From: a virus | Virus record (IMG/VR): IMGVR_UViG_3300042197_002762 | Location: 96,001 to 160,000 of that record | Length of the DNA stretch: 64,000 nucleotides | Strand: one strand, 5' to 3' | In this document: one piece after another, positions 34,363 to 53,053 of the stretch | Layout of the letters: each line of letters begins with the position of its first letter | Numbering within the stretch: position 1 is the first letter of the stretch | The notes under the pieces: model-generated | Told to the model about the DNA's origin: nothing | Database searches by the model: none | The model's input: only the letters and a program-made list of their open reading frames with translations | Position numbers and translations under genes: made by a program

Positions 34363-34726
34363 AATCCGCCATCCAGATGTCAGTTACTAACCTAAGTTCG
34401 TCCACGACCAGTGAACTACCCTAGGATTTGGGTCCGAATCTAGTAGGTCTCCGAACCAGCTCGGCAAAACTTTGTGTCTTGACTGTTGAGTGGCTCAATG
34501 CAACAATGATGTTATCGTATACTTGTTTATAATATACTTCTTTATGTCACCATAAAGGTCAGACTATATCTTCTTTCTTACGAAAGTTCGGGCGCTCGTG
34601 GGCCGTATTATTGTTGGGACTCAACAGCCTAGTCGTTACACCTTCCATCTTATCTTTCCCAGATGGCTTGGATCGGGATTGTCTTTATTTCTAAAGAGTT
34701 TCCCCGAATTCACCCGATAACGGACT
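34363..34726 (-). ncRNA. group I self-splicing ribozyme, apparently circularly permuted
   Basis: P3 UCGGGUG/CGCCCGA; P4-P6 AAUUCGGGGAAAC...GACAAUCCCGAUCCAAGC...GAAGGUGUA; P7 ACGACUA/UAGUCU; J8/7 AAGAUA; P9 with GUGA tetraloop; 5' and 3' ends pair. Confidence 0.8.
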
Positions 34727-34734
34727 TGCTAAAA

Positions 34735-34746
34735 TTTTAAAGAACT
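34735..34746 (-). promoter_or_regulatory. boxA-like antitermination element
   Basis: AGTTCTTTAAAA between GTGTAA (34755-34760) and the ribozyme. Confidence 0.5.
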
Positions 34747-34808
34747 ATTTATTATTACACATTATTTTTTAAATAGACTTAAATTTTAAATTAAAGTATA
34801 ATAAAATT

Positions 34809-50985: not shown

Positions 50986-51032
50986 TTGACAAACTTATAA
51001 AATAAGTGTATAAAAGTAATAGTTCTTTGAAA
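50986..51032 (+). promoter_or_regulatory. sigma70-type promoter plus boxA-like element
   Basis: TTGACA-17-TATAAA (50986-51014), AGTTCTTTGAAA (51021-51032). Confidence 0.65.
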
Positions 51033-51037
51033 ACAAT

Positions 51038-51376
51038 TTGTTAGCAAACCGCTCACTAAGAGCAGAGATGCTAACAATGGTGGTGTGGCGATGAACAACC
51101 AGTAAAATTGGGGTCGCCTTTGAATAAGGTATGCAACTCTACCTCCATATTTCCGTGCTTACATGCACGGAGACTTCTAGAAGCAATATGGTTCCACAGT
51201 GAATAAGCTGCCAGACATGCTGGTCAAAAAAGAAGAGCGCGGGTTCTGGGTAAACCGAAGGCTGTATGTGCCAAAACTCATGTATAAATGGTTTGGTGTT
51301 CTGCGGCTACTGAATGGGTAGCCAATGCCGTAAAAGGCGCAACTTTTACGGTCCAAAGTGCGATAAAAACACCAAG
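51038..51376 (+). ncRNA. large structured ncRNA of unknown family
   Basis: GC-enriched, no ORF in the track, many perfect helices, own promoter, co-transcribed with tRNA-Met. Confidence 0.75.
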
Positions 51377-51383
51377 TTTTAAT

Positions 51384-51456
51384 TGCAGGATCGACAAGAG
51401 GTTAAGTCAGTAGGCTCATAACCTACCATGCGTGAGTTCAAATCTCACTCCTGCTA
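51384..51456 (+). tRNA. tRNA-Met(CAU), initiator-like
   Basis: U1:U72 mismatch, A11-U24, A73, anticodon stem GTAGG/CCTAC. Confidence 0.85.
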
Positions 51457-51483: not shown

Positions 51484-52331
51484 ATGATTATATCAAAATT
51501 AATGGGGGGGCTAGGAAATCAAATGTTTCAATATGCTTTTGCAAGAAACTTATCTCTTAAATTTAACACGCCATTAAAAATAGATTTATTGCGATTAAAA
51601 AAAGAACGGAAGAAAGTTTTAATTCTAAAACAGGACCTAGAAGAGATTACGATTTAAATGTATTTAATGTTTATGAAGATTTTGAAATCAATCCTCAAAA
51701 ATTAATAACAATCTCTGAACCCCATTTTCATTATAATAAAGATTTAATTGATATTATTGAGAAACTTATTCGTAATGGTTACGATATTCTTTTAAGGGGG
51801 TATTGGCAAAGCCCCCACTACTTTAATGAAAATGAATCACAGATCAGACAAGATTTTAAATTTAAAAATAGTATTTTTAATGAAGAGGGTGATATAAGTA
51901 AATTATTAAATAATATAAATTCTAAAAATTCTGTAATGATCAACATACGAAGGACCGATTATTTACAAACATCTTTTTTTGGCGTTATGGGGTTAGATTA
52001 TCTAGAAAAAGCAAAAAAGATAATTGAATCAAAGATTTCAGATCCTCACTATTTTGTTTTTTCAGACGATATTTTTTGGTGCGAAAAAAATATTAAATTT
52101 CCAAATATGTTTTTAGTTGATCATTCTTATAAGGGGCGTAAATTTGAGTATTATTTGCAGTTAATGTCCCAATGCAAACATTTTATTATACCAAATAGTA
52201 CTTTTGCTTGGTGGGGCGCTTGGTTAAATAATGATAATAATAAACTAGTAATAGCTCCGTCCAAATGGTTCACGAATTGTGATATAAATACTAAAGATCT
52301 AATACCTTTTAAAAATTGGATTCGTATCTAA
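51484..52331 (+). pseudogene. alpha-1,2-fucosyltransferase (GT11) with a -1 frameshift near the A7 run at 51597-51603
   Basis: MGGLGNQMFQYA in frame 0 (stop 51657); GYWQS, NIRRTDY, NSTFAWWGAWL in the -1 frame. Confidence 0.85.
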
Positions 52332-52981: not shown

Positions 52982-53053
52982 ACTCCTATAGTTCAATGGT
53001 TAGAACGGCCTGTTTATAACGGGCGAATCTTGGTTCAACTCCAAGTGGGAGTA
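52982..53053 (+). tRNA. tRNA-Ile(UAU)
   Basis: ACTCCTA/TGGGAGT, GCCTG-TTTATAA-CGGGC. Confidence 0.88.

Follow-up and report, generated by a model that had tools for sequence, protein, structure and literature searches.

Positions 51038-51375 of the 64,000-nucleotide stretch of phage DNA analysed here (the window; positions 96,001 to 160,000 of IMG/VR record IMGVR_UViG_3300042197_002762) lie between a predicted promoter and a tRNA gene, and raise the question of what kind of RNA they encode and what it might do. The window is part of a complete phage genome of 178,478 bp with terminal repeats, a GC content of 33.5% and 20 tRNAs. No close cultured relative of this phage was found, the best match of its DNA polymerase III alpha standing at 29%. 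As described below, the locus is almost certainly a real and functional RNA gene. Comparison of its homologs shows a conserved, structured and pseudoknotted RNA (hereafter the ncRNA), which has a promoter of its own and belongs to tRNA- and tmRNA-rich phages.

The locus and its transcription signals

The promoter is a sigma70-type candidate, predicted on the plus strand at 50986-51014, with TTGACA (50986-50991) and TATAAA (51009-51014) separated by 17 nt. A consensus scanner did not list it because its -10 box lacks the last T. Both boxes and their spacing are kept upstream of most homologs. A boxA-like antitermination site, GTTCTTTGAAAA, follows at 51022-51033 (plus strand), and this pattern is present upstream of 30 of the 31 homologs. 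An earlier sequence-only reading had described the promoter and the boxA-like site upstream of the ncRNA, and both are indeed in that place. The phage genome contains five sites with the boxA pattern, three of which head the ncRNA, the tmRNA and a group I ribozyme core.

The ncRNA gene (51038-51375, plus strand, as are all its parts given below) is about 340-348 nt long, its ends being placed by the boxA site and by a 3' U-tract. The minimum free energy of this strand is -111.6, compared to -90.6 ± 4.4 for shuffled sequences (z = -4.75; none of 100 was as low), and its GC content is 0.40-0.45, whereas that of the coding DNA on either side is mostly 0.25-0.33. The claim that the locus is free of ORFs was nearly right: four ORFs of 40-59 amino acids overlap the ncRNA, but none of them recurs as a family across the homologs. 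The only recurring ORF is antisense, 65-66 amino acids long, and is found in three close relatives.

A tRNA-Met(CAT) without an encoded CCA occupies 51384-51456 (plus strand), starting 7 nt after position 51376. It is reasonable to call it an initiator because of its U1.U72 mismatch, the A11-U24 pair and the CUCAUAA loop; there are only two G-C pairs at 29-31. Since the spacer is 7 nt and no terminator-like site was found between the ncRNA and this tRNA, the two are likely to be on one transcript at the window locus, as had been proposed. Such co-transcription is not a property of the family, however, because a tRNA-Met stands directly behind the ncRNA, 3-5 nt past the end of the aligned core, in 11 of the 31 homologs. 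A glycosyltransferase-like gene further downstream is seen as two ORFs (51484-51657 and 51936-52331), the second of which matches phrog_2644 over positions 141-264 alone, so that the gene may be split or carry a frameshift. A tRNA with a UAU anticodon is located at 52982-53053. TAT tRNAs are rare in bacteria. Relatives carry tRNA-Ser(ACT) (L003:16995-17081 and L061:1376-1460).

Homologs and their distribution

Scanning with motifs and then with an iterated HMM yielded 29 distinct full cores. A second, different motif led to a far more distant homolog, L270, and with contigs linked through a protein the number of distinct full-core homologs is 31. Two contigs fetched through a protein, L335 and L362, match a covariance model that covers the 3' domain at 94 and 92 bits; neither was used in building that model, and L362 is outside the counts of 31. 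Three related phages, reached via a protein encoded next to the ncRNA, all carry the ncRNA at about 83% identity. There is one copy per genome. The DnaB proteins of the carriers are 90-92%, 61% and 23-31% identical to that of the window phage, giving at least three levels of relatedness.

Blastn searches of 50,697 isolate phages, for which three different homologs served as queries, and of plasmids gave no real match to the ncRNA. When 185,579 prokaryote genomes were scanned with a pattern, only seed matches came up. The 3'-domain model had no match in 151 Planctomycetota and 151 Bacteroidota genomes, nor in 16 unrelated large phages. In related phages with the same type of tmRNA the ncRNA was not seen within the 13-20 kb that could be read, which does not imply its absence.

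Architecture of the RNA

The family consists of a conserved 3' core of 242-304 nt (51127-51375 in the window) behind a variable 5' arm of 29-316 nt, with a total length of 278-591 nt. The mean identity among 28 aligned sequences is 58% and 58 columns are invariant, many of them unpaired, although this invariance is partly inflated because the homologs were found with these same motifs. Covariation was computed on a structure-blind MAFFT alignment. The 45 pairs are 92.6% paired, compared to 36-48% in slid-partner controls, and 20 of them change on both sides, which none of 500 shuffles reached. Such a shuffle ignores kinship, and the pseudoknot was therefore checked on a tree.

The 5' accessory arm (51038-51126) contains two hairpins, at 51038-51077 and 51087-51118, formed by the helices TTGTTAGCA (51038-46 with 51069-77) and GGCGAT/GTCGCC (51087-92 with 51113-18). 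Both show compensatory changes among near relatives. In other clades they are replaced or lost, the arm sequence being unrelated, and L177 has one small hairpin. Four homologs (L055, L194, L152 and L179) have a common 5' arm of 190-316 nt with conserved hairpins of its own, possibly a separate RNA module.

The core begins with the P1 hairpin (51127-51144), in which AGGTA (51127-31) pairs with TACCT (51140-44). The P2 stem (51145-51191) has variable inner hairpins, and five of its six pairs change on both sides; in the window it is made of CCATATT (51145-51) and AATATGG (51185-91), enclosing TCCGTGC/GCACGGA. P3 (51192-51203) is a small hairpin of 3-4 bp with the loop CAYWGY, the stem of which reads UUC/GAA, UCC/GGA, UCU/AGA or UUU/AAA. 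The variable hairpin P4 (51211-51223), which folds in most homologs from unrelated sequences, is followed by an A-rich linker that carries AGAGYG. The 3' multiloop domain (51290-51375) is closed by P7 (51295-300 with 51368-73), contains the variable P8 (51305-23) as well as P9 (51328-51), and leads into the U-tract. In the window its outer helix pairs TTGGTGTT (51293-300) with AACACCAA (51368-75) and encloses GGCTAC/GTAGCC and CCGTAAAAG/CTTTTACGG. The invariant parts of this domain are GGUU (51290-93), the P9 loop RCGCAA, and UGCGA (51359-63), which is found in a UCC-N4-UGCGAY-AA strand inside the multiloop. The invariant GGUU could extend P7 or could pair with an AACY overlapping strand S2 of the pseudoknot described below.

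P1, the pseudoknot PK1 and most of P7 have no covariation support because their pairs never vary; the exceptions are a single AU-for-GC change in P7 and, in PK1, a G.U-compatible change seen in L209. All five sets of helices named in the sequence-only reading are present, but the first two make up the dispensable arm, and both pseudoknots had been missed. The most distant homolog (L270:8860-8890) is without boxA, and the stop codon of the ORF that precedes it overlaps P1.

Other structures were tried and rejected. A free GGU for tRNA 3' ends, as in RNase P, found no support: in every sequence inspected by eye, GGUU is able to pair with an AACY lying just 5' of it, and the base that precedes GGUU varies. 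Pairing of a 3' GCGAY with a 5' RUCGC fails since the 5' strand, which other clades lack, covaries with its local partner. The closing helix of the minimum free energy fold, UGGUG/CACCA, was abandoned because UGGUG is missing in L177, L196 and L335, whereas P7 is universal. When RNAalifold was run on the plain alignment, the resulting structure was poor, and its local AGAGY/GUUCU hairpin is incompatible with the pseudoknot that covaries.

Pseudoknots and invariant loops

The H-type pseudoknot PK2 (51242-51279) is composed of S1 (51242-45 with 51253-56) and S2 (51248-51 with 51276-79), and accommodates the hairpin P6 (51260-51272) in its loop. S2 switches from GGGU/ACYC to AGGU/ACCU and GAGU/ACUC. 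Its 5' strand has changed five times on the tree, four of the changes being forced by well-supported branches, and the 3' strand follows each of them (by eye), up to a fully rewritten 8-bp helix, UCUAGAAG/CUUCUAGA, in L270. S1 lengthens with covariation in L055, L152, L179 and L199.

The second pseudoknot, PK1, is a candidate: the invariant AGAG at 51234-51237 would pair with CUCU at 51137-51140 in the P1 hairpin, through four pairs. Of the 31 homologs, 28 have UGCAACUC as their P1 loop, and the variants of this loop, UGCAACUU, UGCGAUACUC and AGCAACUC, can be parsed as UGCAA-CUU, UGCGA-UACUC and AGCAA-CUC. T-loop/pseudoknot units occur in riboswitches, and an A1.A5 pair is tolerated in T-loops. 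We infer that the P1 loop is a T-loop, UGCAA, with an extruded CUC that pairs with GAG, because residue 1 pairs with the invariant A5 and a purine is at position 4, in keeping with the residue-level definition of T-loops (PMC4810234).

Pairing of the P9 loop RCGCAA with the junction UGCGA is possible, either inside one molecule or between two; alternatively, they may be further T-loops. By chance, 4-8 T-loop-like pentamers are expected in each core, so that the latter reading is a lead only. The tetramer of the P1 loop is UGCA in 29 homologs, UGCG in one and AGCA in one, with no switch between palindromes. A self-kissing P1 loop is made less probable by AGCA, which keeps only the central GC.

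Comparison with known RNA families

Searches of Rfam at the gathering thresholds and at E<=10, with the window and the long homolog L055, returned chance matches only; for the ncRNA there was no real match to GOLLD, ROOL, RNase P or group I/II introns, the families that were to be checked. With the homologs and the covariation, this bears out the proposal of a large structured ncRNA of a new class. The alternative proposal, a short variant of GOLLD, did not survive. GOLLD (RF02032) is also phage-encoded, often lies near tRNAs, and has a conserved 3' part, a variable 5' part and pseudoknots (PMC12286853). However, GOLLD is often longer than 800 nt, compared to the 278-591 nt of the ncRNA, and the ncRNA is upstream of tRNA-Met, whereas GOLLD env-38 is downstream. 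RF02032, which describes the conserved 3' domain of GOLLD, has no match at E<=10 in the genome of the window phage. In a carrier genome, G015, the same model does detect a GOLLD (150 bits), about 3 kb from the ncRNA. The mean local alignment score between the ncRNA and this GOLLD is 62.7, compared to 58.4 ± 4.2 for shuffles (15 of 100 were as high), and six core motifs of the ncRNA, when sought in it, were all absent. Given the lack of a model match and of similarity, and the coexistence of a true GOLLD in G015, the ncRNA is not GOLLD. In that phage, which also has a tmRNA, the GOLLD is immediately followed by a pistol ribozyme (L270:5701-6185; G015:17289-17773).

ROOL (PMC12286853; PMC5737381) resembles the ncRNA in being a phage RNA near tRNA islands with several pseudoknots and no known protein partner. 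It is about twice as large, however, and gave no Rfam match at E<=10 with the window or L055. GOLLD and ROOL form RNA-only cages, an assembly that is hypothetical for the ncRNA.

Bacterial RNase P RNA (RF00010) is of similar size, has T-loop-like pentamers in its junctions and shares the position beside tRNAs, but its helices are in a different order. Its P4 motifs, CR-I GAGGAAAGUCC and CR-V ACAGAA..CGGCUUA, are absent in all aligned homologs of the ncRNA, and the first of these had rightly been reported as lacking. The RF00010 model has no match. In alignments to five RNase P RNAs, 42, 7, 35, 1 and 30 of 60 shuffles scored as high, and there was no HMM match. An RNase P ancestry, suggested by short motifs seen by eye, was rejected because the similarity is insignificant.

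No group I or group II intron core was found in the ncRNA, whereas the same search does find the group I core of the window (about 34540-34773, minus strand; 69.6 bits). The latter (34731-34540) is compact and apparently free-standing: it begins immediately behind a boxA site, and no 5' exon is evident. The ncRNA has neither an acceptor stem with a free 3' CCA nor a T-arm or a tag frame of the kind found in tRNA and tmRNA, and is not called by ARAGORN. Its 3' CACC takes part in the P7 helix and has AA, CA or GA behind it, or else the sequence is CACU.

T-box stem I, the RNase P S-domain and the L1 stalk contain interdigitated T-loops (PMC4810234), and the invariant loops of the ncRNA contain candidate T-loop pentamers. 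The T-loops of these systems form an interdigitated pair; in the ncRNA the P1-loop variants fit one putative T-loop. Unlike a T-box, the ncRNA has no specifier loop and no conserved UGGN antiterminator bulge, and is not a leader of amino-acid genes. A search of the literature by motif and topic found no description of the ncRNA; at most a fragment of it might be among the viral structured RNA motifs of 29-151 nt that Fremin et al. 2023 mined from the same IMG/VR collection (PMC10690425). The ncRNA is a family separate from GOLLD and ROOL, absent from Rfam 15 and from the literature searched.

Neighboring genes, tRNAs and tmRNA

The surroundings of the ncRNA differ among the homologs. Apart from those with tRNA-Met directly behind the core, seven of the 31 have a tRNA-Asn 195-316 nt downstream, after a second RNA; 11 have no tRNA start within about 350 nt, and two are truncated where the contig stops. 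Directly behind the ncRNA of L060 and L335 there is a new, separate promoter. No neighboring protein family adjoins more than nine of 26 loci, and none is common to the clades within the ±4 kb examined. The second RNA is conserved and about 200 nt long (L056:5575-5770 and L186:8730-8915; also L061, L066, L057, L203 and L209). It contains a CUGAUGA..GAAA-like stretch, has no Rfam match at E<=1, and is preceded by an extra insert of about 120 nt in L057.

A tmRNA is present in 12 of 13 carrier records, compared to two of 16 unrelated large phages. The tmRNA of the window phage (47525-47959, minus strand) has a boxA and encodes an unusually long tag, AEDNTDSILAEAEYIF...LMAA. All ten tags that were read, including those of distantly related carriers, are of one long type, and therefore one host group is indicated; the tag type is, by this comparison, a usable host marker. 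The association with tmRNA may merely reflect a shared host group and few lineages. The tags of four sampled bacterial phyla differ from the phage tag, and the long carrier type presumably recalls Verrucomicrobiota. Group I cores are found in three of the 13 carrier records, and in L004 such a core comes directly behind the tmRNA. Contigs of related phages (L358, L359, L360 and L361) encode the ribosomal protein bS21 and/or Hc1 histone-like proteins.

Possible functions

The best explanation, held tentatively, is that the ncRNA is a stand-alone stable RNA that docks in trans on tRNA or on the host translation machinery. It would have no protein product and would be part of the translation-support kit of the phage, together with the tRNAs and the tmRNA. 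The host sigma70 polymerase would transcribe it with rRNA-type boxA antitermination and, where a tRNA follows, host processing of the tRNA 5' end would free the 3' end of the ncRNA. The T-loop/pseudoknot and the H-type pseudoknot would hold a compact fold, from which the invariant unpaired loops UGCAA, RCGCAA and UGCGA would make up the surface used for docking on a partner that does not change. This partner would most likely be a tRNA-shaped RNA, or a host factor directed at the ribosome or tRNA, for example an anti-phage nuclease that is decoyed by the ncRNA so that phage translation keeps running. This explanation is favored by the many unpaired invariant columns, the covariation, the nearly universal boxA, the varied downstream context, the separate promoters of L060 and L335 and the lack of a constant protein neighbor. 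It is also favored by the frequency of tmRNA, the single tag type and the presence of the ncRNA in lineages whose DnaB is only 23-31% identical, as well as by the fit of the P1-loop variants to T-loop grammar, paired T-loops being the means by which known RNAs bind the tRNA elbow (PMC4810234). The narrower proposal of a new functional class, a compact T-loop/pseudoknot RNA with tRNA elbows or tRNA-directed host factors as its targets in trans, is doubtful. Against docking, chance alone makes T-loop-like pentamers common, CGCA might do no more than pair with UGCG, and the link to tmRNA may have the cause given above. Nor is there a conserved complementarity to the phage's own tmRNA, a conserved 3' CCA or a tRNA-like arm; antisense pairing to the tmRNA was rejected, being no better than in shuffles.

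A structural alternative, possible although somewhat unlikely, is that the ncRNA forms an RNA-only homo-oligomer, a cage or scaffold like GOLLD and ROOL, in which the P1-loop GC would pair with itself, the P9-loop CGCA with UGCG of a neighbor, and CUCU with AGAG. This arrangement can coexist with docking. It would agree with a life style and plan shared with GOLLD (PMC12286853), with a UGCA that is self-complementary in 29 of 31 homologs and wobble-compatible in one more, and with the constant linker of 7-8 nt between P9, which varies in length, and UGCGA, an awkward geometry for an intramolecular knot. However, loops that switch from palindrome to palindrome, the evidence used for GOLLD and OLE (PMC12286853), have no counterpart in the ncRNA, where the most distant homolog is left with the central GC of AGCA and the GCGC of the P9 loop is broken (ACGC) in two homologs. 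The core of about 250 nt is also smaller than the 375-nt 3' domain of GOLLD (PMC12990946).

That the ncRNA is a ribozyme or binds a metabolite, its invariant junction residues being an active site or pocket, is distinctly unlikely: such residues are dense in the junctions and pseudoknots, and carrier phages have group I and pistol ribozymes, but no known ribozyme or riboswitch signature was found, the likeness to RNase P is insignificant and there is no fixed substrate-like neighbor. It is quite improbable that the ncRNA is the scaffold of an RNP whose protein the phage would encode at another place in its genome. The gene is single-copy, its variable arms could dock a protein, and the neighborhood examined spans ±4 kb; yet no neighboring protein is common to the clades, and the replication genes of the carriers are very distant. 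A cis-acting leader that regulates, or helps to process, the downstream tRNA-Met or gene would account for the 11 homologs with a closely following tRNA-Met, but the downstream context differs by clade and two homologs have a separate promoter behind the ncRNA, which makes this very improbable. Least credible of all is a degenerate GOLLD or RNase P. The context is GOLLD-like, and short motifs recall RNase P junctions in similar order (by eye), but no covariance model matches, the alignments to five RNase P RNAs and one GOLLD are no better than shuffles, GOLLD coexists as a separate gene and the P4 motifs are lacking.

Implications

Large structured phage RNAs are few, and the best known of them, GOLLD and ROOL, form RNA-only cages of unknown purpose. 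What is new here is a family rather than a mechanism. The core measures only about 250 nt, natural deletion variants such as L177 (278 nt) mark the minimal unit, and the very distant homolog L270 is useful for testing contacts. The ncRNA is therefore a cheap target for cryo-EM and pull-down experiments on the role of ornate phage RNAs and on how general self-assembly is among them. Its ties to boxA, tRNAs and tmRNA suggest that the carrier phages may run an rRNA-operon-like programme of stable RNAs.
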